DNA from: an uncultured virus (IMG/VR IMGVR_UViG_3300042878_002054)
Taxonomy: Duplodnaviria; Heunggongvirae; Uroviricota; Caudoviricetes
Direction: 5' to 3' (one strand)
Length of the DNA stretch: 64,000 bases
IMG/VR virus record: IMGVR_UViG_3300042878_002054
Of the stretch, positions 4,955 through 51,506 are shown in pieces (positions within the stretch are counted from its first letter, which is position 1; each line of letters begins with the position of its first letter). The notes beneath the pieces are model-generated. The model was not told the DNA's origin, made no database searches, and worked only from the letters and a program-made list of their open reading frames with translations. A program made the position numbers and the translations under genes.

Positions 4955-5437
4955 ATGAATATACCTTCAAAAGAAGATACTATTAAGAAGTGGGCTCCAA
5001 TTCTTGAAAGGATGGGTATGACCGGATCCAAAGCTGATTGGATGTCGGAATATGCAGAGATGCATTCTACGAATAATCATTGGGGTACGGTTGGAGATTT
5101 GAAAGACTTATCAAATACCGAATCAAATACCACAAACAAAGATTTTCCAACTCTTCTACCAATGGCCAAACAAATATTCGCAAAAACGGTAGGTCTTGAC
5201 ATAGTTCCTGTTATGCCAATCGGTGGTGGAAACTCAGGCCCAGAGATGGAATCGATCCGACAAGACGTGAAGATAGAAAATAGGGACCGAAAGATTGAAT
5301 CAATCGTCGAAGACAAAGAATTTGAAGAGATGAAAGTAGAAGACCACCCAGACTACAAAAAGTCAGTAGGACCCAGAGGAGAACTTTTCTATTTGGATTT
5401 CCAATACGGCGGAACAGAATCAAATACTATATTATGA
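4955..5437 (+). CDS. truncated major-capsid (gp23-like) N-terminal paralog carrying the RxxKI motif
   Basis: KKWAPILE, GLDIVPVMP and GPRGELFYLDFQYG resemble T4 gp23 NKWKPLLE ... FDICGVQPM.SPTGQVFALRAVYG (recalled); only 160 aa. Confidence 0.65.
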   Translation: MNIPSKEDTIKKWAPILERMGMTGSKADWMSEYAEMHSTNNHWGTVGDLKDLSNTESNTTNKDFPTLLPMAKQIFAKTVGLDIVPVMPIGGGNSGPEMESIRQDVKIENRDRKIESIVEDKEFEEMKVEDHPDYKKSVGPRGELFYLDFQYGGTESNTIL

Positions 5438-5664
5438 CAACTATATTCAAAAGTCCAGGTGTCTATACGACCGAGAGAAACTCCGACTATTGGCTTCCAC
5501 CAGAAGTGATGAAAGGTATAAGGCAAAGTGGATTGTCTATGTCCAGAAGAATGAAAATCTCAAAGATATTCAAAGATGAAAGTCTTTATCCAGTAATGAA
5601 GGATGGTCCTATAGGTTCTAATGGCACTCTTGGTACTCCAGGTATTTGTGGAAATCATTCTTAA
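5434..5664 (+). CDS. small protein with a tail-sheath-like N-terminal peptide and the RxxKI motif
   Basis: FKSPGVYTTE resembles the SPGVYxxE sheath N-terminus; RRMKISKIF. Confidence 0.55.
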   Translation: MTTIFKSPGVYTTERNSDYWLPPEVMKGIRQSGLSMSRRMKISKIFKDESLYPVMKDGPIGSNGTLGTPGICGNHS

Positions 5665-5704
5665 AAATATCGGATGGGAGTCATGAAGCGAGAATATATA
5701 CTTC

Positions 5705-6040
5705 ATGATAAACATTTATTTGATTTCTTCAGATGCAAACGGTAAAAAACTATACAAGATAGGAATAACCAAAAGATCCATTCCAGAAAGAATAAAAGAG
5801 TTTAAAACAGGAAACGCAGCAGAGCTGATAATAGTGGATTCTTTTGTTTCGAAATGGGCAAGAAAGATAGAAGCGACTTTTCATAGGTCTTTGAAACCTA
5901 AGAAAATATCAGGAGAATGGTTTGACTTAGATGAAGAAGACATAGCAACTTTTAAAAGTAAATGTCAGGCGATGCACGAGAACTTTGATATAATAGAATC
6001 TAGCAATACCTACTACATAGATAGAGGTGGAAGATTTTAA
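5705..6040 (+). CDS. GIY-YIG-like (T5orf172/MUG113-type) nuclease domain protein
   Basis: IYLI...YKIGIT..RIKEFKTGN...IEATFH...GEWF pattern. Confidence 0.75.
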   Translation: MINIYLISSDANGKKLYKIGITKRSIPERIKEFKTGNAAELIIVDSFVSKWARKIEATFHRSLKPKKISGEWFDLDEEDIATFKSKCQAMHENFDIIESSNTYYIDRGGRF

Positions 6041-6070
6041 ACAAATATACTAAAAAACAATATAAAAGAC

Positions 6071-6346
6071 ATGATTGGTTCAATGAAAGAAATGGCGATA
6101 AAAGAATATATCGCAAAGATAAACTTCAAAACAGATGACTGGAAGTTATCTCAAATAAAAGAAGATATGAGAAGATTCTTAGGTGAAGAACCAGGAATAG
6201 ATATCGTATATAAAAAAGACGTGATGGTTAATGAGTTCACAGGTGAGGCCAAAGAATTCAAAGACATCGACAAGGTGGAAATCATCTTCACCGATACTGA
6301 TGATAAATTCAAAAAATTGCAGTTTATCGTTGGCGACAAAATCTAA
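6071..6346 (+). CDS. hypothetical protein, 91 aa
   Basis: ORF with AAACAA-N16-TATAAA upstream. Confidence 0.7.
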   Translation: MIGSMKEMAIKEYIAKINFKTDDWKLSQIKEDMRRFLGEEPGIDIVYKKDVMVNEFTGEAKEFKDIDKVEIIFTDTDDKFKKLQFIVGDKI

Positions 6347-6354
6347 TCTTTTTA

Positions 6355-6573
6355 ATGAAAATTGAAAACTATTATTTAGACCTTAATAAAGTACATAAAC
6401 TAGAAGACCAGCAAGAAAGAGATCAGATACACTCTTATTATAAAGACATGCTTTATTCTATTCAGGATGGTAGAAAAGAGATGGGTATATCTATAATGAA
6501 TACACTTATCAAAAGTGGTTATCTTGTAGATTTTAGAGATGAAAAACTTACCGAGCTTTTAGATGGAAATTAA
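6355..6573 (+). CDS. hypothetical protein with C-terminal RDEKLTELL motif
   Basis: ORF; shared motif. Confidence 0.7.
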   Translation: MKIENYYLDLNKVHKLEDQQERDQIHSYYKDMLYSIQDGRKEMGISIMNTLIKSGYLVDFRDEKLTELLDGN

Positions 6574-6913: not shown

Positions 6914-6959
6914 ACTTATTTCAATAAATCGGTATAAATTAAAAAATATTTTATATATT

Positions 6960-8702
6960 ATGCTGATAAGCGAAATAGGAATAAGAGGCTTTAAGTCATT
7001 TGGAAACAACGAACAGACGGTAAAGTTAAATACAGAAAAAGGAGAGCTAATACTTTTAGTTGGAAACAACGGAAATGGTAAATCAAGTTTTCTTTCAAGT
7101 TTTGAATACACACTTTACGGTAAAGTAAGAGGTGGTAGACAAAAGAAGTGGAGTACACTATCTACATTACCAAACCGAATCAACGGAGAACTTTTAAACA
7201 GAATATCATTCAAATCTGGTGGTGTTGACGTAGAAATCAAAAGAGGAATATCACCGTCCAAACTTGAGCTTTGGGAAAATGGAATGCTTAATGAGAGAGC
7301 AGGAAAATCAAACATCGACGACGCAATCGAAAAGTATGTTGGTATGGATATTGAGACTTTCAAGTCTTTCATATCAATGTCAATAAATGACTTCAAAAAC
7401 TTTATATCACTATCAAATGAAGAAAAACAGCTTTTATTAGACAAACTTTTCAACCTTGAAGTGATCAACATTTTAAACGGAATTCTTAAAGACCTTAATA
7501 AATCTAATAAGACAAGAATCGCTTCTTTGGATTCAGAAATAAAAACTTTAGAAGACTCTATTGGTTCTATTCAAAAATCTATAGAAAGAACTGTTCAAAA
7601 AGAAAAGTTGAATATTCAAGCAGACATAGACGAACTTATGGAACAGATGACTGCTAAGAAAGACGACTATAAGGCTTTAAAAGAAAAGGTCGATAAAATC
7701 AAAGAAAAAGAAGAACAACTAATAACAGAAATCGATGCAGAGAAAAAACAATATATCACGGTTCAGAACGACATTAAGAACGTTCAAAGAGAGATTGATT
7801 TATATGATTCCGGGAAGTGCCCCACTTGTGGAACAGATTTTGATTCTGATCACTTTAATTCTTTAAGAGAAGCACTTGTAGAAAAGAAGACCAAATTCGA
7901 AGACGTAAAATCTACAATAGAAGCAAATATACAAACTATTAAGGATAGACAAACAAAGCTGAAAGAGATTGCAGGAACTACTACAACCACTTTTAATGAT
8001 ATGAGTTATTTCTTAAAAAATTGTAAATCTAAGATTGAAGAACTTACCAGAAAGAAAGACCAAGAATCTAAAGTAGTATCTCCAAATATCGAAGAGTTTG
8101 AAAAGTCTATTAGTGAGTTGGAAGATAAAAAGTCTTTAAGTAAAGACAATGTTGCAGTTAGTAAAGACAAAGAACTTTTCTACAAAGAACTAAACAGAAT
8201 CTTTGGTGAAGATGGTGTAAAGAAATCTATCATAGCAGGTATTATCAAACCTTTAAATCACTTTATTGGAGAAAACATTAGTAAGATGGGAATACCATTT
8301 GGTGTTAAGTTAGATGAAACATTTACTGCAGAAATAAGACAATTTGGATCTTTGATTGAAAGTGATTCTTTATCTACCGGTGAAAACAAAAGAGTGAACA
8401 TCGCAATCCTTATTGCTTACCTAAAACTTATACGTACTAAGAGACACATCAATATTCTCTTCTTAGACGAAGTCTTTTCTTCTATTGATATAGAGGGAAT
8501 AGATTCTATACTAACGCTCTTAAAATCGTTCGCAAACGAGTATAACATCAATATATTTGTAGTTCACCACGCGATTCTGAACCAAGAGATGTTCGATAGG
8601 ATTCTTAAAATAAACAAAGAAGTTTTTTCTTCTATAGAAGAAGTAAGTTATTTAGAAAACGACATATTCGGAAATGGACAAATTGGAGAAGAAACTTATT
8701 GA
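6960..8702 (+). CDS. sbcC: SbcC/Rad50/T4 gp46-like recombination ATPase
   Basis: Walker A GNNGNGKS, coiled coils, Zn-hook CPTC, signature LSTGE, Walker B FLDE, H-loop VVHH. Confidence 0.92.
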   Translation: MLISEIGIRGFKSFGNNEQTVKLNTEKGELILLVGNNGNGKSSFLSSFEYTLYGKVRGGRQKKWSTLSTLPNRINGELLNRISFKSGGVDVEIKRGISPSKLELWENGMLNERAGKSNIDDAIEKYVGMDIETFKSFISMSINDFKNFISLSNEEKQLLLDKLFNLEVINILNGILKDLNKSNKTRIASLDSEIKTLEDSIGSIQKSIERTVQKEKLNIQADIDELMEQMTAKKDDYKALKEKVDKIKEKEEQLITEIDAEKKQYITVQNDIKNVQREIDLYDSGKCPTCGTDFDSDHFNSLREALVEKKTKFEDVKSTIEANIQTIKDRQTKLKEIAGTTTTTFNDMSYFLKNCKSKIEELTRKKDQESKVVSPNIEEFEKSISELEDKKSLSKDNVAVSKDKELFYKELNRIFGEDGVKKSIIAGIIKPLNHFIGENISKMGIPFGVKLDETFTAEIRQFGSLIESDSLSTGENKRVNIAILIAYLKLIRTKRHINILFLDEVFSSIDIEGIDSILTLLKSFANEYNINIFVVHHAILNQEMFDRILKINKEVFSSIEEVSYLENDIFGNGQIGEETY

Positions 8703-8964
8703 GTGTCTAAATCTTAGGTCGCTTAAGCAAGATTTTGCAATGATGCAGAAATGGGATGACGCGGCCAGAACTCGTGAAGATGAGAGAATTTCTGTAAGAG
8801 ATATTCACAATATGCTAAATGACACGTCAGATGATGGATATGACTGGGAAGTCTACGAGAAGTCTTTCAAAGACTATTGTGAACAGAGGTTTGGTACTAC
8901 CAATGCCAAAGGCATACTAAAGATGTTAGATAGAGAAGAAAAACTAAAACAATTAGGTATTTAA
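8674..8964 (+). CDS. UVR (UvrB/C-motif)-like protein with C-terminal REEKLKQLGI
   Basis: LKQDFAMMQKWDDAARTREDE resembles the UVR motif (..FEKAAxLRD). Confidence 0.6.
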   Translation: MDKLEKKLIECLNLRSLKQDFAMMQKWDDAARTREDERISVRDIHNMLNDTSDDGYDWEVYEKSFKDYCEQRFGTTNAKGILKMLDREEKLKQLGI

Positions 8965-8976
8965 AAATAGAAGAGT

Positions 8977-9231
8977 ATGGCAACACAATGCAATAGTACA
9001 TTAGGAACACTTACATCGGGAGCACCTGGATCATATCTTATGACCGATTCGAGTGGAACTCTTTCATGGTCGTCTAAAAATGACACGATGGTAGAGTTTG
9101 TTGAATTTGCATTAGAGATAATGGGTATCGATTTGAAGTATTCGGAGTTTGAGAAGATGTCTAGTTCTGATAGAAAAGCCATGCTTAGAGATTTGAAGAT
9201 AGATAGTGTATTAAAAGGAAAGGAGATGTAA
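8977..9231 (+). CDS. hypothetical protein with a fibre-like peptide and RDLKIDSVL motif
   Basis: GAPGSYLMTDSSGTLSWS; shared motif. Confidence 0.6.
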   Translation: MATQCNSTLGTLTSGAPGSYLMTDSSGTLSWSSKNDTMVEFVEFALEIMGIDLKYSEFEKMSSSDRKAMLRDLKIDSVLKGKEM

Positions 9232-9234
9232 ATT

Positions 9235-9423
9235 ATGTTAGAAGTAGAAGTAGGTAAAGGTGGTATTGAAGCCGCGTTGAAAAAACTCAAAAGAAAGTGG
9301 GACAAAACCAAAATGATTAAAGAACTTAGGTCAAGAAAAGAGTTCATCAAAACAACTGATAAAAAAAGAGCGGCCAAAGGAAGAGCCGTATATATAAACA
9401 AAAAATACAGACTAGAAGACTAA
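9235..9423 (+). CDS. rpsU: ribosomal protein bS21 homolog
   Basis: 62 aa, basic; IEAALKKLKRK...IKELRSRKEF.K pattern. Confidence 0.85.
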   Translation: MLEVEVGKGGIEAALKKLKRKWDKTKMIKELRSRKEFIKTTDKKRAAKGRAVYINKKYRLED

Positions 9424-9434
9424 AAACTAAAAAC

Positions 9435-9635
9435 ATGGGATTTAACAAAAGGTACATCAACAAAGAAAATGTAATAATGAAATACAAAGAAGGCTTGGAA
9501 TCCCTTGTCCGATACATATCGATGTCGGACTGTCTTATAATAGAAGACGAATTCTCGGAGCAGGTCGTGGATATAGTAATGAATGACGACGGATATATCG
9601 CTGGTGAGAAGATAGAAAAAATGATAGCAGAATGA
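9435..9635 (+). CDS. hypothetical protein, 66 aa
   Basis: ORF between rpsU and dnaJ with ATGA overlap. Confidence 0.65.
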   Translation: MGFNKRYINKENVIMKYKEGLESLVRYISMSDCLIIEDEFSEQVVDIVMNDDGYIAGEKIEKMIAE

Positions 9636-10339
9636 ACTTAGGAAAGAACTACTACGCCTTGCTGGGTGTCGCAAGAGATGCGGAAGAAAAGCAGATAAAG
9701 AAAGCTTACTACAAGCTTTCTTTTACACATCATCCTGATAAGGGTGGTAATGCGGTGTTCTTCGCAGAGCTTACAGAAGCGTATGACGTTCTTTGTTCAA
9801 AGGAAAGATCTGACTATGACTTAAAGTCTAAGTTTGGAAATAACTATAATGAATATTTTGAGTTATTCAACATAAACTCTGAGCTTGAGTACGATGATGT
9901 TAAAAGTAAGAGAGAAAAGTTTAAAGACTCTGAAGTTCTTAATATTCAAATAAAGGTTGGTGAAGACTTCAACGGATCTGTCGAATATGAAAGATATGTC
10001 AAATGTAAAACATGTGATGGTTCTGGAAAAGACCTTTCTTCTAAAATAGTCATAAGAGATGTTGATGGAAACATTCTAAGAACATTTGATGCGGATGATG
10101 GTTGTGACTTCTGTGAAGGAAGTGGTAAAGACTATGCCGGAAATCCGTGTTCTTTTTGTTCTGGTCAGGGTAAGATTGGAATGACACATTGTAAAAAGTG
10201 TGATGGTGAAAAAAGAATACTGGGTAAACAAAAGCTTTCTGGTATAAAGCTTGATGGAGATGAGACAAAAGTAGACTCTATGGGGCATCATTCAAAGAAT
10301 GAGCCCGGAAAGTCTGGATATCTTTTGATTGTTAGATAG
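9632..10339 (+). CDS. dnaJ: DnaJ-like chaperone (J-domain plus Zn fingers, short C-terminus)
   Basis: YYALLGV...HHPDKGG; four CxxCxG motifs. Confidence 0.9.
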   Translation: MNLGKNYYALLGVARDAEEKQIKKAYYKLSFTHHPDKGGNAVFFAELTEAYDVLCSKERSDYDLKSKFGNNYNEYFELFNINSELEYDDVKSKREKFKDSEVLNIQIKVGEDFNGSVEYERYVKCKTCDGSGKDLSSKIVIRDVDGNILRTFDADDGCDFCEGSGKDYAGNPCSFCSGQGKIGMTHCKKCDGEKRILGKQKLSGIKLDGDETKVDSMGHHSKNEPGKSGYLLIVR

Positions 10340-10340: not shown

Positions 10341-13300
10341 CTAATTTGTATTTGTCTGATTATTGGCCGCAACCGTATTATTAAAAGTTGCAGGTTGTGC
10401 AGGTAATCCAGGTAATCCAGTAACTGCAGCAACTGCAGGATCTGCAACAGAAGCCGCTTCCGCAGCAGCAGCGGCAGATTCTGCTTGTATAGATACCTCA
10501 CCACTTGGCTGGTAGATATAGAAACTATCTAATCCGTATATACTATTATCCAACAAAGAGAAATCATTTTCAACATACTCTATATTAGGAGCGATTGCCT
10601 GATAAGGAACAGATACACTTTTATTTATATTCTTTGTATTGAAATATTGAAAGAAAGGTATCATATCTACTTCATAAAGCTTAAGATTATCTATTGTGAT
10701 ATTAGATACGTTAGATCCATTTAAACCATTTCCTCTAAAGAACATTGATAAGTTTGTTTTGTTATAGAAGAATTCTATTTTAGTTTTATTAGGAGTCGAA
10801 ACGTGATTAATATTTTTATACACTGGGAAATAAGTTGTGTCTAATTTTCTTTCTTTGTATCCAATTCCAGGAACATATACTTTTCTAAGTGCGTAGTTTA
10901 AGTTGTTAAAATGTATAAGTGGTTGATATTTAGAACTATCATCATAAAGACTTGTGTTACCATCTTCAAATATAAAGTCAGGAACAAGTGCTTGTATTAA
11001 ATCAAATTTTACAATAGTGTATCTTTGTTTGGCTATAGGAGAGTTTGTTCTGTTTGCAACATCATAAGAAGGTTGTATGTTTAAAACACCACCTTTTCCT
11101 ACGGCACTGACCTTCATTTCTTTACCAGCCGCTGGATCTTCATCATCAAGTGCCTCTGTTGTTCTTTCAAATGAAATAGCAGACCCTGGATTTCCATCTT
11201 TGGCAAATACCCATCCTTGATTGGCAAAATCTGTAGATGTTGGTAACTGTTGTCCTACAGGTTTAGTTTGAAAATAAGGAAATGTGTTTGTTCTGTATAA
11301 ACCTGCTTTGGTAGTCCATCCAGTTATATCAAAATGATCACCAAAGTCTCCCGCGTCACCTATATAGTCTTCATATATTTTGTATTTAGATCCTAATCTA
11401 TATTTTCTTATGTTAGTAGAAAAACTATCTCTGAAAGTAACACTACTCGACAATACATCATAAGTAGGATATCCGTATAGGTTATTGTCTGAATATGCAT
11501 AAGTTGAAACAGAATTATCTATTGTAGATTGTGGTTTACCAATGTTTACAGCACTAGTATTATCAAAGTTAACATCCATCCAAGAATCGTACATGAAAAC
11601 TCTTGTATTATCCATAGATTGTAAGGAAGTAACTTTAGATGCATTGTTAGCATTGAAGTCTACGTTCTGTACAAGTCCGGTTGATATGTTGGTTGTTATA
11701 GTTCCTTTGATGGCAGTACCATACGTATTTGGATCTTTATCAGTAGCCCATGCCAAATCCACTATTACTCTATAGTCATCAGGAATAGAAAGTATTTTGG
11801 TTGTTCCAAACGTACTGAAAGTAGATGATATTGTTATTGAATCTCCTACCGTAAGACTATGTATTTTATCAAAAATTATTCCTACTTTTATCATATCTAA
11901 CGTAGCTAAATATGTATTTGAAAATTCTAAAATTCTTTTTCTAGATTGGAAATGTCCACCGTCAAATTTACCATCAAGCCAATGTGTATCGAACATTTCG
12001 GTTATATAAGGAAATCCTCTAAATAGTCCGTTGTTCCAAACTCCAGTAAAGTATCCGTTAAAGAACCCACCAGTAAGCCAAACGTTTTTAGTTATGTAGA
12101 TTCTATGTATGTCAGAGTCTATCTTTATTCTTCTTATTGGGAAGTCACTTTCAAACTCAACTGCTATAGACTTAGTTGTTTTTGTCATTATAGTGAAATA
12201 GCTCTTTATAAGCTTTCTTTCTTCATTTACATCTATTGCTACAATGTTTCCTATAGAGACTTTATCACCAACTTCAAATCTAGAAACTGCATCCATTGAT
12301 CCGGATATAGAGAACCTCCATCTTTTGTCTCTGTTGTAAGAAAAGAAATCCGATATGTTATGGAATTCATGTAAGTTTTCGTCTTTTCTCCAACCACTAT
12401 TCCAAGCACCATTTTCCCATACACCTGCCATGAATTTTCCATTTCCTATTTTGGCAGTCACTGAGCTAAGAGAAAGAGTGTTTGGATCGTTTAAGTTTCC
12501 AGTTCCTACATAAGTAGAGTAAGATACATTTTCAATCGTGTCCATAAGAGAAAAAGTGTTATCTCCACCAGCACCGGCTGCTGCAGTAGCAAATAATAAA
12601 TCTGTTGCACCCGGAGTGGTTGATCCTATTGTTGAACCCAATGCAACTCTTGGTAATCCTGTTGCAGAATCTAAAGGATTCTCAGTAGGGGAATTGTTTA
12701 CTCCAAAAACATCGTCGTTTACTCTATACAACCTGTTGTTCGCGTCATGGTATCCACCATCTATCTTCAGATTTTTCAGAGAAGATCTAAGATTTAGCAA
12801 CGGTGTGTAACCGGGTGCTTTCTTAACACCTCTAAAATCGACTGCAGGATCTTCAACCTTACTAACTTGATCACCTACTATGAATAAATATTGATTTCCT
12901 TCTAATCCAAACAGATACTGAAGTTTTGCAGCACCGGGATTGGTCGTATTTTCTACATCACTTTGTGTAAGTGTCAATATAGGAGTATATACTTTTTTGT
13001 ATAAGAATTCTATATTCCAATCTTCAAAGATACCACTATCTCCACCCCAATCATCTTTTATGTAAAGTGAGTAAGTACCATTAAAAGTTCCATCTACATT
13101 AGAAAGATATTTTAAGTCATTAACACTTGATCTAAAGTCAACGGTTTCATCTCCGGTTGTCGATATGTTGTTGAACCCGTTTAACATTGTTGTTGTTCCT
13201 TGTCCGTTGTTTTTATCCATTTGAAAAGTAAGACCAGGTAATATCATAAGTTGAGACCAGTCAAAGTTGTATGACGAAGAAGAATAAGGTGTTTGTAACC

Positions 13301-15683: not shown

Positions 15684-15712
15684 TAACTATATATTAAAAT
15701 TTAATTTGTCCA

Positions 15713-24469: not shown

Positions 24470-25183
24470 ATGGAAAAGAAGAAAATATTAGTTTTTAGCG
24501 GTGCCGGTGTCTCTAAAGAGAGCGGAATCGAGACGTTCCGAGATTCGAAAGATTCACTTTGGAACAACTATAAGATTGAGGATGTTGCAACAACAGACGC
24601 TTGGCGAAGAAATAGACCATTGGTATTAGATTTTTATAATCAAAGACGTGCTCAATTGAAAGATGTTCATCCTAATTTGGCACATCAGATAATCGCAGAT
24701 TTAGAAAAAGACTATGATGTTACATTAGTAACACAAAACGTAGACAACCTACACGAACGTGCTGGTTCTAATAATGTTATTCACTTACATGGTGAACTTA
24801 ACAAATCTCGTTCTACTTTCCCGGGCTCAACAGATTCTTATGATTGTACGGAAGATATAAAGATTGGTGACAAATGTCCACGAGGTTCACAACTTCGTCC
24901 TCATATTGTTTGGTTTGGTGAGAACTTAGATCCTATGAATATAACCACTGCAGAAGTTGCTGCAGGTAAATGTGATATCTGTATAATCGTTGGTACTTCT
25001 ATGCAAGTTTTTCCGGCAAATCAAATTCCATTCTTAACCAAAAAAGATTGTATAATATTTTATGTAGACCCAAGTGAAATGGATTTCTATGTTCCAGAAT
25101 TCAGAAATGATTTCTTTCATCACATAAAAGAACCAGCAACGACAGGAATGCAAACACTTTTAAATATTTTGAAAGATGCTTAG
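24470..25183 (+). CDS. cobB: Sir2/CobB NAD-dependent protein deacylase
   Basis: GAGVSKESGIETFR, TQNVDNLHERAG, HG, RPHIVWFGE, VGTS. Confidence 0.93.
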   Translation: MEKKKILVFSGAGVSKESGIETFRDSKDSLWNNYKIEDVATTDAWRRNRPLVLDFYNQRRAQLKDVHPNLAHQIIADLEKDYDVTLVTQNVDNLHERAGSNNVIHLHGELNKSRSTFPGSTDSYDCTEDIKIGDKCPRGSQLRPHIVWFGENLDPMNITTAEVAAGKCDICIIVGTSMQVFPANQIPFLTKKDCIIFYVDPSEMDFYVPEFRNDFFHHIKEPATTGMQTLLNILKDA

Positions 25184-25511
25184 AATATCTGAATTTCAAA
25201 GCTATAGAGATGGTGGAACCATTTCTATGCACTGTATGATGGCGGTTAGTTGGATGGAAGTACCCTATCTGGAGATGCGAAGAAATAAAGAGATTGAGAT
25301 TTGTTTAGACTTCAGATTAGGAAAAGAACCAAAGTTTTGGTTTGGATATCCAGGAAAAGAAGACTCGGAACTGATTGAAGAACAAAGTATAATAGACTAC
25401 ATAGTAAAAAAGGTAGAAGAATACAAAAAGTATCAAAACCACAAGTTGGATAGTTTTATAAACTACAGAGAGAACCTAAGAGATTGGAAAATTAAAAACA
25501 TTTTGGAATGA
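25176..25511 (+). CDS. hypothetical protein with C-terminal RDWKIKNIL motif
   Basis: ORF; shared motif. Confidence 0.7.
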   Translation: MLRISEFQSYRDGGTISMHCMMAVSWMEVPYLEMRRNKEIEICLDFRLGKEPKFWFGYPGKEDSELIEEQSIIDYIVKKVEEYKKYQNHKLDSFINYRENLRDWKIKNILE

Positions 25512-25744
25512 AAGAGATAACAACATACGAAGACCAATATGGAAAATACTACGAAGTCAAAGACTATAATGGATCGTACAAAAAGTTCGGAAACTACGAA
25601 GAAGCCAAAAACTGGTATACTTACGCTTCGAAATACTATATGAGTATAGATCCTTGTGAAGAGTCCGAAGAAGACAGGATTGCCAGAGAAGCCAGAGAGA
25701 AAGCCATAAGAAGAAACGAAAGAATTGACTCAATCTTAGACTGA
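25508..25744 (+). CDS. hypothetical protein with C-terminal RNERIDSIL motif
   Basis: ORF; shared motif. Confidence 0.7.
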   Translation: MKEITTYEDQYGKYYEVKDYNGSYKKFGNYEEAKNWYTYASKYYMSIDPCEESEEDRIAREAREKAIRRNERIDSILD

Positions 25745-26979: not shown

Positions 26980-27012
26980 AAAAAACCCACTCATTTGAGT
27001 GGGTTTCTTTTT
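26980..27012. terminator. bidirectional intrinsic terminator
   Basis: AAACCCACTCA/TGAGTGGGTTT hairpin with A and T tracts between convergent genes. Confidence 0.85.
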
Positions 27013-28829: not shown

Positions 28830-29450
28830 ATGATTAAAATAGGACTAACAGGAAATAGATACTCAGGAAAGGATACGGTAGCCAAATTGTTTGAGCAGAT
28901 TGGTGTACCTGTATTCAATGCAGATATTATATTGAAGTTCATACTCAACTTTGACATAAACGTCAATAAAGACATTTTAGACAACTATGGAGAGTATATC
29001 TTCACAGGACCAGACTCTATGATAGATCCTAAGAAGATACGTTCTAAGAAAGACTTTGATAAGCTTGTAAACTTTGCAGAGTTTGAGCTTAAGAGAGCAT
29101 ACGAAAGATTCAGATTGGAAAACAAGCAATCGGTCTACACCATATTTCATTCATCCATCCTCTTTGAAAGAGGATGGGACAAAGACATGGACTTTACCAT
29201 AAACGTGTTTGCACCAAAAGATGTGAGAAGTCTTAGATGTGAGAAAATAACAAAACAATCCTCTTATAACATATCAGAACTTATGAAAGGTGAAATGAAT
29301 GATTTAGTCAAAAATAAATTGTCAGACTATGTTATACACAACTATTCAAGTGCTACCATCGCGTTTGGAGATTCGTGTGATCAAGTAAACAAAATCGATC
29401 AAAAGATAATCGACAAATACCTAATCAAAGAACAATCATTTGCACTATGA
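28830..29450 (+). CDS. coaE: dephospho-CoA kinase-like protein
   Basis: IKIGLTGNRYSGKDTVAKLF, VFNAD, ILFE, DYVIHN. Confidence 0.8.
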   Translation: MIKIGLTGNRYSGKDTVAKLFEQIGVPVFNADIILKFILNFDINVNKDILDNYGEYIFTGPDSMIDPKKIRSKKDFDKLVNFAEFELKRAYERFRLENKQSVYTIFHSSILFERGWDKDMDFTINVFAPKDVRSLRCEKITKQSSYNISELMKGEMNDLVKNKLSDYVIHNYSSATIAFGDSCDQVNKIDQKIIDKYLIKEQSFAL

Positions 29451-29866
29451 AAGTAAAATTACAAATCAAAACAAATTGTCTAAACAAATTGATGTTTGTA
29501 AAGATATTGAAAAATCATACAGGACTTGGTCTAAAAGATTCTAAAGAAATTTGTGATAGATTACATGAATTACCTTATCAACCAGTCGAATTTTTACTTG
29601 ACCCGCCGGTTGACATCAATCCAAATGAATACGCAAAATTATTTAGAGAAGAACTATCAGAAATAGGTTTAGAGTTCAATATGTCTGGTGGTACAGATTT
29701 TGAAAGAAACAGAAAACTACTCGTTCTTGGACTTGGAGAAAAAGAAGATTATGTTTCTTTTTTAGAAGAAGCTATGATAAATCAAAAAGAATTACTTAAC
29801 TTAGCTTTAAATAAATTGTCTAAGGATGATTTGAAAGAAGTATTCGATAATATAAAAACAATATAA
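29447..29866 (+). CDS. ribosomal protein L7/L12 C-terminal-domain-like protein with RNRKLLVLGL motif
   Basis: KLMFVKILKNHTGLGLKDSKEICD matches the bL12 CTD signature TGLGLKEAKxxV. Confidence 0.7.
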   Translation: MKVKLQIKTNCLNKLMFVKILKNHTGLGLKDSKEICDRLHELPYQPVEFLLDPPVDINPNEYAKLFREELSEIGLEFNMSGGTDFERNRKLLVLGLGEKEDYVSFLEEAMINQKELLNLALNKLSKDDLKEVFDNIKTI

Positions 29867-36286: not shown

Positions 36287-36702
36287 TATCTATCTAAGTT
36301 GTTTTGGTTTCTAGTTTGAACATAGGATCTTCCAATCACAAAGTTTTCTTTTTCAAATCTCTTTATTACTCTGTCTACATTGTCAACTTCTTGAGATTTA
36401 AAACTTCTTGTATCTTTGAAAGTTCTTTCTTCCGGAACTATTGTTTCAAAATGATATCCTTGATCCCACGTAGATCTGAATATGAAGAAGTCCATGAAAG
36501 TGTAACCAAACTCATCAAGCATAGGGTATATAGAATTTGTTTGAAGTTTTAAAACACTACCTTTTCTATTGACCTTTCTTACTCTTCTTTCAAGCATTAG
36601 TCCAAAGTCTGTAAGATCCGTATCGAACTTGTAATTTCCATACAAAGGTTTGTAGAAAGAAGATTCTGATTTTGTGTATGAAGTCTGACTATAAAAGGAC
36701 AT
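36286..36702 (-). CDS. hypothetical probable structural protein
   Basis: 138 aa ORF with TTAATATATA at 36721-36730. Confidence 0.65.
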   Translation of the reverse strand: MSFYSQTSYTKSESSFYKPLYGNYKFDTDLTDFGLMLERRVRKVNRKGSVLKLQTNSIYPMLDEFGYTFMDFFIFRSTWDQGYHFETIVPEERTFKDTRSFKSQEVDNVDRVIKRFEKENFVIGRSYVQTRNQNNLDR

Positions 36703-36732
36703 ATCAAAGATTATTTTTATTATATATTAAAA

Positions 36733-41760: not shown

Positions 41761-41784
41761 TTATAGTATTTCCTTTAAAATTTT

Positions 41785-44700: not shown

Positions 44701-45033
44701 ACCAAGATTAGCAATAGGTGAAGGCTCTCTGTTTAAGTCAACCGTTATAAGCTTTTTAAAGTTGTTTGGAGATGTCTGTATAAGAGATCCGGTAGTATCG
44801 ATACTATATAAAGAGTTGATATTGTTATTAAGCCTATCTATCTCAGATTTCAAAGAGTTAACAGATGGTATAGCGAAGTTTCTTAAAACTCCGTTGTCGT
44901 CGAATATCTGCACATTTACAGACGGCTCGGTTGTTGTAGTAACACTATTTATTTTTGTAAGTATGTCAACGATGTTTTTGTTGAAGCTTATTACTTGATC
45001 CGCCACTTTAGGAAATGAACTTTGAATTGCCAT
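41785..45033 (-). CDS. large probable virion protein (1082 aa) with coiled coils
   Basis: Long ORF heading the late block; TTAATATATAC upstream. Confidence 0.7.
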   Translation of the reverse strand: MAIQSSFPKVADQVISFNKNIVDILTKINSVTTTTEPSVNVQIFDDNGVLRNFAIPSVNSLKSEIDRLNNNINSLYSIDTTGSLIQTSPNNFKKLITVDLNREPSPIANLGTVNSFKATNNWFFDSMLNPMLSVEIDLSGQVEDNVRKVQVRRYIVDFNKDANGTITNTGQAALNSFNQLFRNTSNIVITDFENWHRTTPGVVAPLNPRMDEQVFDLDPNELLYEGNFSILRIQEDRLNRKLWYVLDTLDYLNISTNGIQKLSVGSEVIINRNQTSTRYKVIEVSTAETNPRVRFEKVEGMEAIPVGIGVLKIYSPIIYNKMIKISIGYNERNVVFAKALNTDNNLLCRTWSPGTGYWSNDLRLSANSSDNGTTMEQFYTDFVYDYGTVIQDLVAKKTPNKLAGTPVAPTLNLTNFKVVQINKHLTDTADSNAIKQKHNQQQTLKSELTQLQQAILDKNKKAKVEKYQSDSGKKQALLEIQDLTKKKESKSRLAATLTQEIIDISRNPMSKVEPKFRVRGFWTIPDAIITRGTKPQEIVQFRVQYRYISKDGKETPIETFKVDDTQKTASFSNWNEFKTDARKRTFDKGTGQYSWQIEDVTAADTPNINQLDLAIQANENIEIRIKSISEVGWPESAVESDWSEILTVAFPTDLNNVLNDNDFILKEATKEDLKVRMDAELSAKGLDDHLSDTVTLNSKTYHHDSDKILSGFKDENGVALDLYEYLKKMEDRIKGLEEKIKRAKGELEIVILRNNQEFIISNGSETTFTIECEDYLDPYKATGIPTGRVYANNIYVIKDFVVKVKNKSVDSPLGLLSDKSYTSNATAYNSNSPQVFWVNDHDELITTDTSGQTRTQMNNQFIWAVNYSSITSNSVNKLGENIGNSFKTKASNSITNVLSSTEYNLGYNETTILSFVGNNKSVLDNSKWLDTNVTVSSTTKLLTTIHPVVKDLDDIVETNSDKVYTMKTGDTNSTIVPLNIYFKLNALDTNQNGLNYKYVNFNNARETVKHIKKVKFSLENEAENKPFTFTIKFNINRNKVIFKRPDSFTTPYTTRAIRDNFRPSQFALREAQVSTFNRNIFD

Positions 45034-46947: not shown

Positions 46948-47262
46948 ATGAGCGATTTTGAAAACGTTGCATTTCCACACGTAAGATACATAGGTGGATC
47001 TAAATCAAAGAAGGACAAGACCGGATACTATATGGGTGGCGAGTCCGAAGAATCGGATAGTGTTCTCATATTAGGTAAAGAATACAAGCTATCCTATCTA
47101 TGGTTCTCTCCGAACAGTGAAGAGAAAAGAAGATACGTTTGGGCGTGCAAATCAGAAGATTTGACAGAGTACGGGTCAAAGAAATACGCAAACGTCAATC
47201 CAAAGAACTTTGGAACGATTGCTGATTTAAGAGAAAGAAGAATAAACCAAATATTAATATGA
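46948..47262 (+). CDS. hypothetical protein with C-terminal RERRINQIL motif
   Basis: ORF; shared motif. Confidence 0.7.
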   Translation: MSDFENVAFPHVRYIGGSKSKKDKTGYYMGGESEESDSVLILGKEYKLSYLWFSPNSEEKRRYVWACKSEDLTEYGSKKYANVNPKNFGTIADLRERRINQILI

Positions 47263-47885
47263 CAGACTTTTATAAACCAGAAGACGGAGATGTCGTGAAG
47301 ATTCTTCCTATCTTGAAGAAAGACGGAACTTTCTGTTCCTTCATAAAGACAGGATTTGTTTACTTGGCCCCAGATGGAAAACTGATATACGACCAAGCCA
47401 ACTATCTGAGAAGAATCCGTCAAAATGAATATGTTAAGAAATCTAACAAAATTCCGAACATCGGAGAAAGGTTTTGGTTCTTCGTATTGATAAACGAAGA
47501 GTTCAAATTCATGCAGACTGGTAAGAAACTTACCGATATAATAAAAAAAGGACTATATCAAGGTCAGTCGATGGGTAGTCTATTGACCGGGAATGGACAT
47601 CTGAAGATATCCAAGAAGCATGTACAGACTGGTGTGAATTCAGCTCAGTTTCCGTGCTTTGACGAATCAAAGATTGTCGAAAAGAAATGGAATTCTCCAA
47701 ATATATCAACTCAAACAGATGCAGTTGAGTGGACAATGAAAAATCAACCTATTTTTATTGAGGATTACTTAGAAAGTAATGGTATATTTGCTAATCTGAA
47801 ATTACTAAATGAATATTTCGATAATGCTTTTTCTGACCTTATAGCAGAGGATAGAAATAAAAAACTAGAGACTATAGGAATATGA
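47259..47885 (+). CDS. divergent gp32-like ssDNA-binding-fold protein with C-terminal RNKKLETIGI
   Basis: VVKILP, FKFMQTGKKLTDII, FPCFDESKI recall gp32-family IRFLP / FGKKI.D.I / NYD.S.F. Confidence 0.45.
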   Translation: MTDFYKPEDGDVVKILPILKKDGTFCSFIKTGFVYLAPDGKLIYDQANYLRRIRQNEYVKKSNKIPNIGERFWFFVLINEEFKFMQTGKKLTDIIKKGLYQGQSMGSLLTGNGHLKISKKHVQTGVNSAQFPCFDESKIVEKKWNSPNISTQTDAVEWTMKNQPIFIEDYLESNGIFANLKLLNEYFDNAFSDLIAEDRNKKLETIGI

Positions 47886-47938
47886 TAGATACGCTACATA
47901 AATGCCACGTTTTTGATAAAATTTGCTTACACAAGACT

Positions 47939-47966: not shown

Positions 47967-48059
47967 AAAGGATAGTTATATCATAGGAAGCAAATAAATT
48001 TTAATAAATAAAAATCAAAAGCAATCAACAGAAGTTGACTAAAAATAAAAAGCAATAAA

Positions 48060-48659
48060 ATGGAATCAAAAGCAATCTTATTCAGTGATCAAGAAAAAAT
48101 CTTCGTAGAAAGAACAGGTAAAGACTTCTCAACATTATACAAGAAGTATTACCCAAAGTTAATCTACTACACATCAAAAATGTGCAACGATCCTCAAAAA
48201 GCAGAGGACATCTCAACGGACTCTTTCCTGACTGCGTTTGAGAAAATAGACAAATACGATGTCGAAAAAGCACAATTCTCAACTTGGCTATTTACTATAG
48301 CAAAAAATCTCGCATTACAAAGCATTAAAAATGACAAAAGAAGTATTTCTTTGGACGTTGAATATGACGACGAAGGAACTACTATGAAAGACTTTATCAC
48401 ACAAGAAGAAAGTGATGTAGTTCTACATGATGTTCAAGACAAAAAAGCCGAAATAATGAAAAAACATATCGACAGTCTAAAAGAACCTTATAGAAGTGTT
48501 ATTGAAATGAGAGAAATCAAAAGAATGTCTTATAAAGACATATCTGACACATTAGGCAAAAACTTAAGCACAATCAAATCTCAGATAAGAAATGGAAGAG
48601 CCATTCTTGTTAAAGAAACTGAAAGCGAGTTCAAGCAGATTGACGAAATGTACCTTTAA
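48060..48659 (+). CDS. ECF-type sigma-70 factor
   Basis: Region 2 (AEDISTDSF...FSTWLFTIAKN) and region 4 (SYKDISDTLGKNLSTIKSQIRNGR). Confidence 0.92.
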   Translation: MESKAILFSDQEKIFVERTGKDFSTLYKKYYPKLIYYTSKMCNDPQKAEDISTDSFLTAFEKIDKYDVEKAQFSTWLFTIAKNLALQSIKNDKRSISLDVEYDDEGTTMKDFITQEESDVVLHDVQDKKAEIMKKHIDSLKEPYRSVIEMREIKRMSYKDISDTLGKNLSTIKSQIRNGRAILVKETESEFKQIDEMYL

Positions 48660-48684
48660 TTTACTAACCTTAAAACTTTAAAAA

Positions 48685-49251
48685 ATGGCTACAAACTTGC
48701 AGCTACCAAAGGAGAGAAACATCTACTTTTCAAAGCAGGTGGATCAATCCTCTATTGGTGATTTGACCAAAAATATCATCGAAATAAACGAAGATGACAA
48801 ACATATTAAAAAGATGTACGCTGTATACGGCATCGAATACAAGCCAAAGCCAATCAAGATATACATCGACTCTTATGGAGGTGCGGTATACCAATGTTTT
48901 GGACTTTTATCTGTAATGGAGAGAAGTAAGACTCCAATCCATACAATCGTAACAGGATGTGCGATGAGCTGTGGATTCTTAATCTTAATATCAGGACATA
49001 AAAGATTCGCTCACAAAATGTCTACACCATTGTATCACCAAGTCTCTTCTGGGGCGTTTGGAAAAGTACAGGATATGGAAGAGAAAGTTGAAGAAGCAAA
49101 AAGGCTACAGAAACAGATTGAAGAATATACTATGGAAAGAACCAATATTGAAAAGAAGAAACTTAAAAAAGTTTTAGAAAACAAAATAGACTGGTTTATG
49201 ACAGCACAAGAAGCAAAAGATTTAGGAGTTATTGACGTAATACTAGACTAA
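48685..49251 (+). CDS. clpP: ClpP-like serine protease subunit
   Basis: IYIDSYGG, GCAMSCG (Ser), LYHQ (His), DWFMTAQEAKDLGVID. Confidence 0.92.
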   Translation: MATNLQLPKERNIYFSKQVDQSSIGDLTKNIIEINEDDKHIKKMYAVYGIEYKPKPIKIYIDSYGGAVYQCFGLLSVMERSKTPIHTIVTGCAMSCGFLILISGHKRFAHKMSTPLYHQVSSGAFGKVQDMEEKVEEAKRLQKQIEEYTMERTNIEKKKLKKVLENKIDWFMTAQEAKDLGVIDVILD

Positions 49252-49253
49252 AA

Positions 49254-50519
49254 ATGGAAACTGAGATCCTGGCCAGAAAGGCCTTAGAAATATTGAAATC
49301 GAAATGGGGTCTGCCTCAAAAGGGATTTTTGGCAGGAGGCTCTTTAGCCAACACAATATGGGAATTACACTCTGGAAACCCAGCAGTTGTGAATGATCTT
49401 GATATATTCCTTTTTGAAGGAAAGATTGATAATCAAGAAGAGATAAGTAGAGAAGATTCTTTGTTTAGATTCAAAGAAGAAGATGTTAGATACTACGAAG
49501 ACTACACAGGAATGTGCTGGAATAGTTATACAAAAGACTTTTATACTATAACTTCTTCTGAAAAGAAAGGAATATTCAATGAGATTGGATATAAAGCATC
49601 TACGGATGAACAAGGTATAATCCTTAACTCTTTTGATATAAATGCAACCAGAGTAGGATATTCGATTGAAGAAGATAAGTTCTACATCACAAAGGACTTT
49701 GAAGATTTCTTAAATACTGGTGAGTTGAAGATTTGTAATATACAGACTCCTTCACACACAGCCATAAGGATTGCCAAGAAAAGTAAAGAGCTTAATGCCA
49801 AGCTTGACGAAATGGAGTTTAAACTTATCTCATATTGTTTGTCTCGATGCTTTTCCGATGTGAACAAATTTAGATTCAAAGAAAGATATTTTGAGATGTT
49901 TCAACAAAATAAAAATTTGTTAGAACCTTACTTTAAAATAGAAAGAGATAAAGAGATTGAGGAATTTCTAAAACTACATAAAAATGTTGATACTGAGTTG
50001 TATGGTCTTACGAACACTGACTACTTCTTACCGATAAAGGAACAAGAAAGTAAAGACTATGATATTCTTTCATTATTAGAAACAAACAATATCTTCAATG
50101 ATGACAACCTGGGAAAACTACATACTTCAAAAGATTTTCTTTTCTATATCAGAAACGTGTTCGGAACAGAAATGGAGCAAATCTGGGAAAAGATATACTA
50201 CTTCTACACAGATTGTGGATATGTAGATATGGAAGTTTCTAAAGAAGATCTTGACTTATTAAAAAGACTTGGTGATTATGCACCAAAGTCGATTGAGAGT
50301 CTTAAAGGAATGAAGATGTCTCAACAGCTTTCTTTGGTAAAAAAGCTGTTGGATATATACAAAGAAGATCCTATAATAGCAATCTCTATTTTAGAGAAAG
50401 GTAATGTCGGTCTTTATGATGATTTAGATGATGAATGTAATCAACTTCTTTTAGAACTAAGCGTTCGTAAAGAGATTGTGAACGACACAAAAAACAAAGT
50501 CGGAAATATATTAGGATAA
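49254..50519 (+). CDS. nucleotidyltransferase (Pol-beta superfamily)-like protein
   Basis: FLAGGSL...NDLDIF and FDIN motifs. Confidence 0.6.
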   Translation: METEILARKALEILKSKWGLPQKGFLAGGSLANTIWELHSGNPAVVNDLDIFLFEGKIDNQEEISREDSLFRFKEEDVRYYEDYTGMCWNSYTKDFYTITSSEKKGIFNEIGYKASTDEQGIILNSFDINATRVGYSIEEDKFYITKDFEDFLNTGELKICNIQTPSHTAIRIAKKSKELNAKLDEMEFKLISYCLSRCFSDVNKFRFKERYFEMFQQNKNLLEPYFKIERDKEIEEFLKLHKNVDTELYGLTNTDYFLPIKEQESKDYDILSLLETNNIFNDDNLGKLHTSKDFLFYIRNVFGTEMEQIWEKIYYFYTDCGYVDMEVSKEDLDLLKRLGDYAPKSIESLKGMKMSQQLSLVKKLLDIYKEDPIIAISILEKGNVGLYDDLDDECNQLLLELSVRKEIVNDTKNKVGNILG

Positions 50520-50576
50520 AGCCAGAACTTTATAACAATAGGTTTATATAAATAAAACAAAAAACAATATAATAAT

Positions 50577-50921
50577 ATGATTGCATATATTACTGAATTA
50601 AATACAGAAAACTTTGAAAGTTTTACAAAAAATGAACTAACTTTAGTAGATGTTTGGGCTCCTTGGTGTGGACCGTGCAAAATGATTTCTCCTTTAGTAG
50701 ATGAAATCTCAAATACGTATCACGGAAGATTGTCTGTTGGTAAACTTAACGCAGATGAGAACAGAGACATCGTTGCTGATCTTGGTGTTAGAAACATCCC
50801 TACTATTCTTCTTTACAAAAACGGAGAGTTGGTAAAAGACGAAAACGGAGTTATTGAAAAACTTGTAGGTTCTGTTGATAGACAAAAATTGACAGACTTT
50901 GTAGAAAAACAATTAAACTAA
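50577..50921 (+). CDS. trxA: thioredoxin
   Basis: WAPWCGPCKMI, cis-Pro motif NIPT. Confidence 0.95.
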   Translation: MIAYITELNTENFESFTKNELTLVDVWAPWCGPCKMISPLVDEISNTYHGRLSVGKLNADENRDIVADLGVRNIPTILLYKNGELVKDENGVIEKLVGSVDRQKLTDFVEKQLN

Positions 50922-50927
50922 TCCTTT

Positions 50928-51506
50928 ATGAAACCAATCAATAAAATATTCGAATATCTTAAAGAATCGAATCTTACTATGATTGGCTATAAGTACCAGG
51001 ATGAACGGATAAAAGACGAACTCATTTCAAAATTACCTCACATAGAGATTTTTGAATTTGATTCGTCTTTTTCTGTTATGTCTGCCTTAAAGCGAACAAT
51101 AAGAGATAAAAAGATTGGCTCTGTGTTGGATGGTGAAGAATTTTCAAATACAAACTTTTTAGTAGTCGATTTGGGAAATTTCAGCATGTCAAAATCAGAA
51201 TCTGCATTTGAAAGGAGTAGACACATATCTGAATTTGTCGGACAAATGAGAAAAGAGGTGTTGGAAACCAAATATAGTTTGATTATACTCTCACCAGTAA
51301 ACTCAACAATGGGATCTGCCTTAGGTAATGATATACCATCTTTCAGTGGAGGAAATAGAAGCATTTACATGGCAGACATGGCTTATGTGATAGAAGGAAG
51401 AAAAATAAAGATAATAAAGAACAGATTCGATGGTGATAATATAACAATATCGCTTGATAATCTAAAAGATTATAAGTACATTTGTAGCTATGAAAATAAC
51501 AAGTAA
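50928..51506 (+). CDS. degenerate RecA/DnaB-fold fragment without Walker A, carrying RDKKIGSVL
   Basis: FLVVD, IILSPVN, SGG.RSIYMAD, IIKNRFDG; no GxxxxGK[ST]. Confidence 0.55.
   Translation: MKPINKIFEYLKESNLTMIGYKYQDERIKDELISKLPHIEIFEFDSSFSVMSALKRTIRDKKIGSVLDGEEFSNTNFLVVDLGNFSMSKSESAFERSRHISEFVGQMRKEVLETKYSLIILSPVNSTMGSALGNDIPSFSGGNRSIYMADMAYVIEGRKIKIIKNRFDGDNITISLDNLKDYKYICSYENNK
51453..51484 (+). promoter_or_regulatory. Bacteroidota sigmaA-type promoter CTTG-N20-TACATTTG
   Basis: 5 nt before the smpB ATG. Confidence 0.55.

Follow-up and report, generated by a model that had tools for sequence, protein, structure and literature searches.

What a single short peptide is doing on many small and otherwise unrelated phage proteins is the question raised by a stretch of IMGVR_UViG_3300042878_002054, an IMG/VR record of an uncultured virus. 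The window analyzed here is the whole stretch of 64,000 nucleotides (nt), in which about ten small plus-strand genes encode proteins that share this peptide, hereafter the tag. A preliminary description had flagged seven open reading frames (ORFs) as tagged proteins that often carry a truncated mimic of a core phage or host machine. All seven are present in the window (4955, 5434, 8674, 8977, 29447, 47259, and 50928; ORFs are named by their first coordinate). Sequence comparisons partly confirm that view. The tag is much bigger in extent than was reported, and the truncated-mimic reading holds for four of the seven ORFs, but by these comparisons not as a rule for the tagged set.

The window is a portion of a huge T4-like phage. 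Its closest public records are LR756502.1 (W01, 642 kilobases (kb)) and LR745206.1 (W02, 635 kb), both uncultured huge phages with about 69% identity to the window across the stretch from ligase to ClpP. Their host is one that we take, from the literature on these records, to be of Bacteroidota type. The T4-like gene set of W02 includes a gp23-like capsid protein, portal, clamp loader, and gp55-like late sigma factor. The other comparison genomes are the sister huge phage LR756504.1 (W04) and the IMG/VR relatives G005 (281 kb) and G007 (344 kb); completeness is 94% for G005 and 58% for G001, another tag-bearing genome. ORFs were called by a simple greedy longest-ORF rule, and all tag percentages depend on this rough ORF set.

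The core of the tag is the peptide R-[DNE]-x-K-[IL]-x-x-[ILV]-[LG], mostly located 0-9 residues from the C-terminus. Its portable form spans 9-13 residues, K-x-x-[IL]-R-[DNE]-x-K-[IL]-x-x-[ILV]-[LG], and the extended consensus, numbered from the arginine, is K(-4), [IL](-1), R0, [DEN]1, K3, [IL]4, [IL]7, and [LG]8, then D, N, K, or I and a stop. The peptide is read as an amphipathic helix. A loose regular expression finds nine instances in 57 window genes against 1.59 +/- 1.11 (maximum 5) across 200 shuffles, and the strict form occurs 85 times in W02 against 0.73 +/- 0.76 expected (100 shuffles). A hidden Markov model (HMM) trained on these 85 instances, which is circular for W02 and independent for all other genomes, was used to call tags at a score of at least 8 bits, with reversed ORFs as the control. 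The tagged ORFs were distributed as follows:

W02: 107 of 984 ORFs (reversed control 1)
W01: 99 of 1002 ORFs (reversed control 1)
G007: 33 of 511 ORFs (reversed control 0)
G005: 33 of 417 ORFs (reversed control 0)
W04, the sister huge phage: 4 of 956 ORFs (reversed control 2)
Window: 6 of 446 ORFs (reversed control 0)

The tag is thus borne by 6.5-11% of the ORFs in four related genomes, or about 100 proteins per 640-kb relative. Most W02 tags (92 of 107) end at most nine residues from the C-terminus, about 14% are internal or close to the N-terminus, and one protein holds two tag matches. Tagged W02 proteins are small, with a median of 110 amino acids (aa) against 143.5 aa over all ORFs. A strict back-translated pattern gives 67 matches in 66 IMG/VR stretches, with an in-frame stop within 0-6 codons in 47, which indicates that the tag is present in many uncultured phage contigs. 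This DNA pattern undercounts (one match in G007 against 33 at the protein level) and gives no basis for calling G007 or G008 tag-poor; W03 was examined by the pattern alone.

The tag is modular and its carriers turn over fast. A DEAD-type helicase carries it in a 14-residue loop insertion, at which the W04 orthologue has a gap. Among the 107 tagged W02 proteins, 44 have a homologue in W01 and seven in W04, and six of these seven W04 homologues are without the tag. In sets of orthologues, the tag columns are invariant and the tag is among the best-kept segments. The codons at the fixed R, D, and K follow genome-wide usage (chi2 2.5, 0.5, and 1.6), and synonymous codons vary among the window instances. 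Selection therefore acts on the peptide, and a DNA or RNA signal is very unlikely. Purifying selection maintains the tag on small proteins that turn over fast and are otherwise unrelated. A full-text search of open-access papers and preprints found no account of it, and its profile gave chance matches only against solved structures (Protein A Z-domain and kinesin KIF7, E >= 0.78).

The window ORFs that were flagged, or that bear the tag or a variant of it, are:

4955..5437, plus strand: 160-aa fragment (propeptide, N-arm, first conserved strand) of a major capsid protein of the T4 gp23-like type
5434..5664, plus strand: conserved 76-aa ORF with an N-terminal FKSPGVY, a conserved RRMKISKIF, and a Gly-X-Y tail; tag doubtful
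6355..6573, plus strand: 72-aa protein with the C-terminal tag FRDEKLTELLDGN
8674..8964, plus strand: 96-aa protein with a UVR-like motif and the C-terminal tag DREEKLKQLGI, kept in 19 distinct orthologues
8977..9231, plus strand: 84-aa protein with the C-terminal tag LRDLKIDSVL, a conserved core (about 45 aa), and an N-terminus that is hypervariable and rich in Gly/Ser/Thr
25176..25511, plus strand: 111-aa ORFan with the C-terminal tag LRDWKIKNILE, the top score in the window; no Pfam or PHROG match
25508..25744, plus strand: 78-aa ORFan with RRNERIDSILD, a K->R tag variant, at its end (score 0.4, not counted as tagged)
29447..29866, plus strand: 139-aa protein with an N-terminal half like the bL12 C-terminal domain, then a conserved internal tag-like ERNRKLLVLGLGEKEDY
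46948..47262, plus strand: 104-aa ORFan ending in the variant tag LRERRINQILI, also K->R (score 1.2, not counted as tagged)
47259..47885, plus strand: 208-aa protein with the invariant C-terminal tag DRNKKLETIGI, fold unassigned
50928..51506, plus strand: 192-aa RecA/DnaB-like core without Walker A; the tag is an internal helix (aa 59-67)

The tag HMM scores are 14.3 for 25176, 12.8 for 8977, 11.1 for 8674, 10.7 for 50928 (internal), 9.7 for 47259, 9.6 for 4955 (internal), and 6.9 for 6355; no reversed window ORF scores as high as 6 bits. By this measure, five of the seven flagged ORFs (4955, 8674, 8977, 47259, and 50928) bear the tag. The tag on 29447 is a regular-expression-level variant only, ERNRKLLVLGLG (HMM score 0.4), and 5434 does not carry it convincingly (score -0.1). 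Beyond the seven, the tag is found on 25176 and on 6355, where it is retained in 21 distinct orthologues, and K->R variants end 25508 and 46948.

Among the proposed parents, a major capsid N-terminus was borne out for 4955. Residues 6-109 of 4955 align to residues 8-126 of a 560-aa W02 protein (33% identity, E 7e-15), which is the major head protein (phrog_138, E 3.8e-24), so that the match covers the N-terminal quarter. Additionally, 4955 matches 58 IMG/VR loci, and all 12 of those inspected are long capsid-like frames of 352-758 aa. Its W02 orthologue is 58% identical, and orthologues are 145-171 aa long. 4955 does not have the full, shell-building HK97 fold, which comprises A and P domains in about 500 aa. 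With its short length and early end of homology, 4955 is a fragment and not a capsid protein. The tag (aa 110-118) lies within a segment of about 45 aa, after which the C-terminal ELFYLDFQYGG aligns to the next conserved capsid strand, where homology stops; the tag thus sits inside an insertion. A second tagged W02 fragment aligns to capsid residues 344-530 (E 7e-15). One of these two tagged capsid-protein fragments in W02 is encoded 5 kb from the capsid gene.

The UVR assignment of 8674, proposed as a UVR coiled coil, is supported through its W02 orthologue. This protein exceeds the Pfam UVR (PF02151) cut-off (22.6 against 21.5 bits) and, across 21 aa, shares 71% identity with the UVR motif of a 701-aa ClpC-like unfoldase encoded by the phage itself. 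The window copy is more diverged than the W02 orthologue and has no Pfam match at E <= 0.01. W02 has three UVR-bearing proteins, namely the ClpC-like unfoldase, the tagged 99-aa protein, and a protein that has a bifunctional-nuclease domain and, at its C-terminus, a strong UVR motif (E 2.7e-9; W02 525460-526068 (+), L031:5460-6068).

For 29447, the family profile (A3) supports the proposed resemblance to the bL12 C-terminal domain (CTD). Its top 13 rows against the PDB are all bL12 (best E 3.7e-4), residues 5-51 of the family align to the bL12 CTD, and a precomputed PF00542 match is present in six of 47 homologues; 29447 alone is below the PF00542 cut-off (18.7 < 25.9 bits). The architecture differs from that of the ribosomal protein. 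The dimerization and bL10-binding N-domain and the hinge of bL12 are not recognizable before the CTD (a stretch at the C-terminus scores a non-significant -1.4 bits), and the CTD-like domain of 29447 stands first, with the tag-like stretch and then a helical tail behind it. The variant stretch ERNRKLLVLGLG has many invariant columns among 21 homologues. In the ribosome, the bL12 CTD is the docking site for EF-Tu, EF-G, and related factors.

The capsid fragment may have a comparable connection, for which the Gol region of T4 gp23 is the closest known parallel. In T4, about 100 residues in the first quarter of gp23 bind EF-Tu, and 29 residues within this quarter trigger the Lit defence (PMC3014915). 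The match of 4955 is likewise to the N-terminal quarter of its gp23-like parent; unlike the T4 region, 4955 is a separate conserved gene with an inserted tag, which would be expressed independently of the full capsid gene. If the EF-Tu binding described for gp23 is taken together with the bL12 CTD, two of the four proven baits would point at translation GTPases. The phage with these baits also carries S21, SmpB, and an S1-domain protein.

The fourth case, a RecA/DnaB fragment lacking Walker A (50928), stands for the core and for the absence of the P-loop, but not as a recent truncation. The core is detected with the deep profile only: A5, built from 87 sequences, finds UvsX (E 4e-4), Twinkle (2e-3), UvsX again (0.018), and a recombinase (0.04) in the PDB, and the shallow profile and Pfam gave no match. 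A5 also weakly matches proteins of about 410 aa in relatives, presumed to be recombinases. Core strands that include a Walker B-like hhhhD and a KNRxG stretch align to 50928 from UvsX and from Twinkle/T7 gp4-like helicases. In contrast to these enzymes, the family is without Walker A (GxxxxGK[ST], 0 of 87 members), and the tag helix is a conserved family part, scoring at least 8 at the same position in 58 of the 87 members. The family is old, and its members are stand-alone proteins of only 150-220 aa that form 192 clusters at 50% identity. The ESM Atlas gave only sub-0.9 leads to Rad51-domain clusters, an AlphaFold2 model from a shallow alignment was unusable (mean predicted local distance difference test score (pLDDT) 38.1), and no close relative was found in IMG/VR. 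One source labels the homologue P0118 a 'SepF-like predicted cell division protein (DUF552)'; profile searches point to a RecA/DnaB-like core.

The remaining three parent assignments are not supported. The tail sheath N-terminal peptide proposed for 5434 has no statistical match. BLAST against the sheath proteins of relatives (1283-1295 aa; sheath family PF04984) left the N-termini unaligned, and the likeness is by eye over about 14 residues, FKSPGVYTTERNSD to YKRPGIFIEEFDQS. This ORF has nine orthologues of 73-87 aa, no homologue in W01, W02, or W04, and no Pfam or PHROG match. It ends in Gly-X-Y triplets (GPIGSNGTLGTPGICG) that resemble the collagen-type fibres of the window. One relative (L242:612-876) has an 11-residue internal duplication directly before RRMKISKIF. 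The fibre repeat proposed for 8977 has no match to the fibres of the window; 8977 has 38 distinct orthologues, and one W01 paralogue has Gly-Pro-X triplets.

A gp32-type single-stranded-DNA-binding protein (SSB) was proposed for 47259. None of the 21 family members matches gp32 (PF08804), even at E <= 5, and the family profile finds no SSB in the PDB. Relatives hold true gp32 genes above the cut-off, with which 47259 shares a 12-residue local match only. R199, K201, K202, and L203, which fall in the tag, are invariant in the 21 homologues. The best PDB row is ribosomal protein uS4 (E 0.27), with residues 82-196 of 47259 weakly aligned to its S4 domain and C-terminus (E 0.27 and 0.84, not significant), a lead that points away from gp32. 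An AlphaFold2 model from a shallow alignment has a pLDDT of 44.7, and the ESM Atlas gave nothing.

By these sequence tests, mimicry is rare among the tagged proteins, and the claim that they 'often' carry truncated mimics was overstated. In W02, a Pfam cut-off is passed by two of 105 tagged proteins (the helicase and the UVR protein), any PHROG is matched by four of 105, and with the tag masked, five of 107 have a similar protein elsewhere in W02. Mimicry at the level of folds escapes sequence methods, and its real share may therefore be larger. A minority of tagged proteins are cut-down copies of larger machines: a capsid quarter, a ClpC M-domain UVR, a bL12 CTD, and a P-loop-less RecA-like core. 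The preliminary description's modular tag joined to unrelated N-terminal parts is real, in about 100 proteins per genome, but three of the seven parents that it named are not supported.

The genes compared here are real genes under selection. Ratios of nonsynonymous to synonymous substitution rates (dN/dS) were calculated pairwise by the Nei-Gojobori method between the window and up to 72 related metagenome loci, with only pairs at 0.05 < dS < 2. The medians are:

4955: 0.148
5434: 0.226
6355: 0.236
8674: 0.169
8977: 0.291
SbcC (comparison): 0.070
S21 (comparison): 0.083
DnaJ-like (comparison): 0.048

Decay into pseudogenes had been named as one outcome that would undo the mimic proposal. With values of 0.15-0.29, the tested genes are not pseudogenes, and lengths are kept over 47-135 homologues. 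Contigs from RNA libraries (four metatranscriptome runs from four studies) overlap portions of 4955, 8674, and 8977 at a similarity of at least 85%. Because DNA carry-over is possible and the contigs come from relatives, this indicates presence in RNA libraries rather than transcription. A contig of run X3 joins 8711 to 9212 through 28 other letters and skips both 8674 and 8977; a relative seems to be without, or to have a replacement of, the two-gene tagged cassette 8674/8977.

The context of the tagged genes bears on their timing. The word AATATATA (consensus TTAATATATA) is 10.8-fold enriched within 80 nt upstream of W02 genes, mainly 10-40 nt before the start. In W02, it precedes the portal gene and a gene for a 1910-aa structural protein, and near variants (TTATATATA) stand ahead of the genes for capsid and head closure. 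Most big minus-strand structural genes of the window have TTAATATATA, or its core ATATATA, about 10-55 nt upstream. The blocks with this putative late promoter are:

10341-24379, minus strand
36286-45033, minus strand
52353-62447, minus strand

From gene position, the TTAATATATA word is likely a late promoter. T4 itself uses a different word, the classic TATAAATA, although W02 has a gp55-like late sigma factor; TATAAATA gives no clear contrast between tagged and untagged genes (p 0.05 and 0.6). AATATATA is found upstream of two of 107 tagged genes in W02 (untagged 180 of 877; Fisher 5e-8) and three of 99 in W01 (untagged 200 of 903; Fisher 3e-7), and none of the tagged genes in the window is preceded by the putative late promoter word. 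Additionally, 61% of tagged genes overlap the next gene against 37% of untagged genes, with median gaps of -4 and +5. The depletion of the putative late promoter and the tight operons make the tagged genes look early or middle.

Tagged proteins would then be non-late effectors or regulators, and the tag would be a common docking signal through which one hub reads all of them. Tentatively, we propose that this hub may be the phage's own ClpC-like AAA+ protease, working with phage or host ClpP, and that the tag may be a degron or an adaptor-docking helix. The tag would let the phage clear tagged proteins on schedule; alternatively, the partner bound by the bait part might be dragged to the protease via the tag. 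The unfoldase has D1 (AAA), a UVR M-domain, D2 (AAA_2, D2-small), and a VGF ClpP-docking loop; Clp_N is not among the matches listed (25 of 38 Pfam families), and a short acidic N-terminus stands at the place expected for the usual adaptor-binding N-domain. The phage ClpP lies within the non-late block of tagged genes:

48685..49251, plus strand: phage ClpP (PF00574, E 1.5e-29)

ClpC with ClpP is favored because each of the six tag-bearing genomes searched encodes the unfoldase (W01, W02, G001, G005, G006, and G007), a tagged family copies its UVR motif, and ClpP is encoded amid tagged genes. The gene directly after ClpP (49254-50519 (+), 421 aa) has no family match and is 53% identical in W02, where the orthologue has a weak nucleotidyltransferase match (E 0.0026). 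It has no listed AAA+ family and so does not resemble ClpX.

Known Clp degrons and docking peptides include the ssrA tag, the MuA C-terminus, the SspB tail, and the contacts of MecA with ClpC. The tag resembles them as a short terminal peptide that would address many proteins to one AAA+ machine, in a phage that encodes ClpP and a ClpC-like unfoldase. It differs in that its sequence is unrelated, that it stands 0-9 residues from the free end and is also found internally, and that the phage unfoldase is apparently without the N-domain used by known ClpC adaptors. Several observations weigh against the protease as the hub. The tail after the tag mostly ends in D, N, K, or I, unlike ssrA-type degrons with their fixed free C-terminal position and non-polar last residues. 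For a degron, it would be odd to occur within a replication-type helicase and within a RecA-like family that is old. Tag-poor W04 has the ClpC-like gene as well, and no ClpP homologue was found in tag-rich G005 despite its 94% completeness. All tag-rich genomes are kin, so that their co-occurrence with ClpC is not independent evidence. The late-promoter label itself comes from gene position only. The tag-rich genomes W01, W02, G005, and G007 have 82 proteins in common, the ClpC-like one among them. Finally, a phyletic screen of 41 W02 proteins common to W01, G005, and G007 but absent from W04, 39 of them untagged and scanned with Pfam, gave enzymes and proteins without assigned function, with no evident peptide-binding module or receptor. 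The 50928 family was also considered as the tag receptor, which is not supported, as it was not found in G005; it is present in W01, W02, G006, and G007, with a partial match only in G001.

A more specific form of the proposal, which we think decidedly unlikely, is that more than 100 tagged non-late effectors serve as targeted-degradation adaptors that would hand host or rival-phage proteins to the phage ClpC/ClpP, with the variable parts as baits. The baits would then include the EF-Tu-binding capsid quarter, the bL12 factor-binding domain, and the ClpC M-domain. The tag could also dock to a hub of the host or the phage other than a protease, through which effectors and some enzymes would be concentrated at one place. 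Examples would be the ribosome, RNA polymerase, a factory for replication or translation, or a chaperone such as host Hsp70 together with the DnaJ-like protein of the phage. Such a hub is possible, although rather doubtful. The conserved Arg and Lys, flanked by hydrophobic residues at -1, +4, +7, and +8, fit a groove-binding helix, and such a hub is consistent with a tag that occurs at C-termini, in loops, and near N-termini, is inserted into the helicase, and is integral to the RecA-like family. The bL12 CTD and the capsid quarter point to translation factors, and the DnaJ-like gene follows the tagged cluster. However, the phyletic screen was uninformative and gave no candidate hub, and the comparison of the tag profile with solved structures gave nothing meaningful (best E 0.78). 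If the motif only reflected a DNA or RNA signal near the ends of genes (promoter, translational coupling, or recombination site), this would fit the frequent overlap with the next gene, through which the tag codons come to lie shortly before the following start codon. This explanation is largely refuted and highly improbable, since synonymous codons vary freely at genome-wide usage, the reading frame is constant in every instance, internal tags lie far from gene ends, and orthologues hold the residues while codons change.

Loading into the head is an unlikely explanation, in which the tag would be a capsid-targeting or ejection signal and the tagged proteins would enter the large head and be injected as ready-made effectors along with the DNA. 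The phage is T4-like (gp23-like capsid, portal, clamp loader, and the gp55-like late sigma factor of W02), two tagged W02 proteins are capsid-protein fragments, and the internal proteins of T4 are diverse and fast-evolving, with only a short portable targeting peptide in common. The T4 capsid targeting sequence is N-terminal, is cleaved by the prohead protease, and marks a handful of internal proteins; like the tag, it is a short portable terminal peptide on unrelated, fast-evolving small proteins of a T4-type phage. In contrast, the tag is C-terminal or internal, has no conserved adjoining protease site ([LI]-x-E), and marks about 100 proteins per genome, which would be an unprecedented number of cargo species. 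Its genes are also about tenfold depleted for the promoter word found before head, portal, and fibre genes and lie in tight operons with DNA-metabolism and translation genes, and their early or middle appearance weighs against a capsid-loading signal. We also judge it improbable that the tagged proteins form, as a general rule, a library of immune-sensor decoys or dominant-negative fragments of core machines, as the preliminary description had mainly proposed, with the tag only a stabilizing or oligomerizing helix. Four mimics are true, the capsid fragment 4955 is conserved under selection, and 4955 covers the first quarter of a gp23-like protein, a quarter that in T4 includes the 29-residue Lit trigger (PMC3014915). 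Against such a library, 103 of 105 tagged W02 proteins are below every Pfam cut-off and 102 of 107 are without a within-genome relative, and a merely stabilizing helix needs no invariant Arg and near-invariant Lys across unrelated folds.

Short terminal address signals are central to cell biology, as degrons, sorting signals, and cargo-loading peptides. To our knowledge, the T4 capsid targeting sequence is the sole phage case of such a shared signal, and it marks few proteins. Here, one peptide marks about a tenth of the ORFs in several huge phages, and almost every protein so marked is without an assigned function. The tag reader, once found, would give hundreds of orphan genes a common pathway and provide a handle on how huge phages organize or time host takeover. 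The tag could also become a portable tool for Bacteroidota-type hosts. The fragments of capsid, bL12, ClpC, and RecA-like proteins offer concrete cases, open to testing, of a phage that reuses pieces of large machines.

The window has a G+C content of 32-42%. It carries very large minus-strand genes (2888, 2155, 1780, 1675, and 1082 aa), with collagen-like fibres, and blocks of small plus-strand genes that include SbcC, ribosomal protein S21, DnaJ-like, Sir2, NAD-ligase, sigma factor, ClpP, thioredoxin, and SmpB. Translation and proteostasis genes, unusual cargo named in part above, and a sigma factor are located as follows:

9235-9423: ribosomal protein S21, a translation gene
9632-10339: DnaJ-like J-protein with a zinc finger
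34437-35543: S1-domain protein
48060-48659: sigma-70-type factor
51490-51933: SmpB

Two giant ORFs, 10341-15683 (-) of 1780 aa and 15713-24379 (-) of 2888 aa, each have a proprotein-convertase P-domain match and no further family. A short M16 (insulinase-type) peptidase is encoded at 27011-28117 (-), with matches to both active and inactive domains, and could process small proteins or peptides. Amid the tagged genes, 5705-6040 (+) encodes a T5orf172/MUG113 (GIY-YIG-like) domain protein, with ATATATA 11 nt upstream, that may be a mobile endonuclease.

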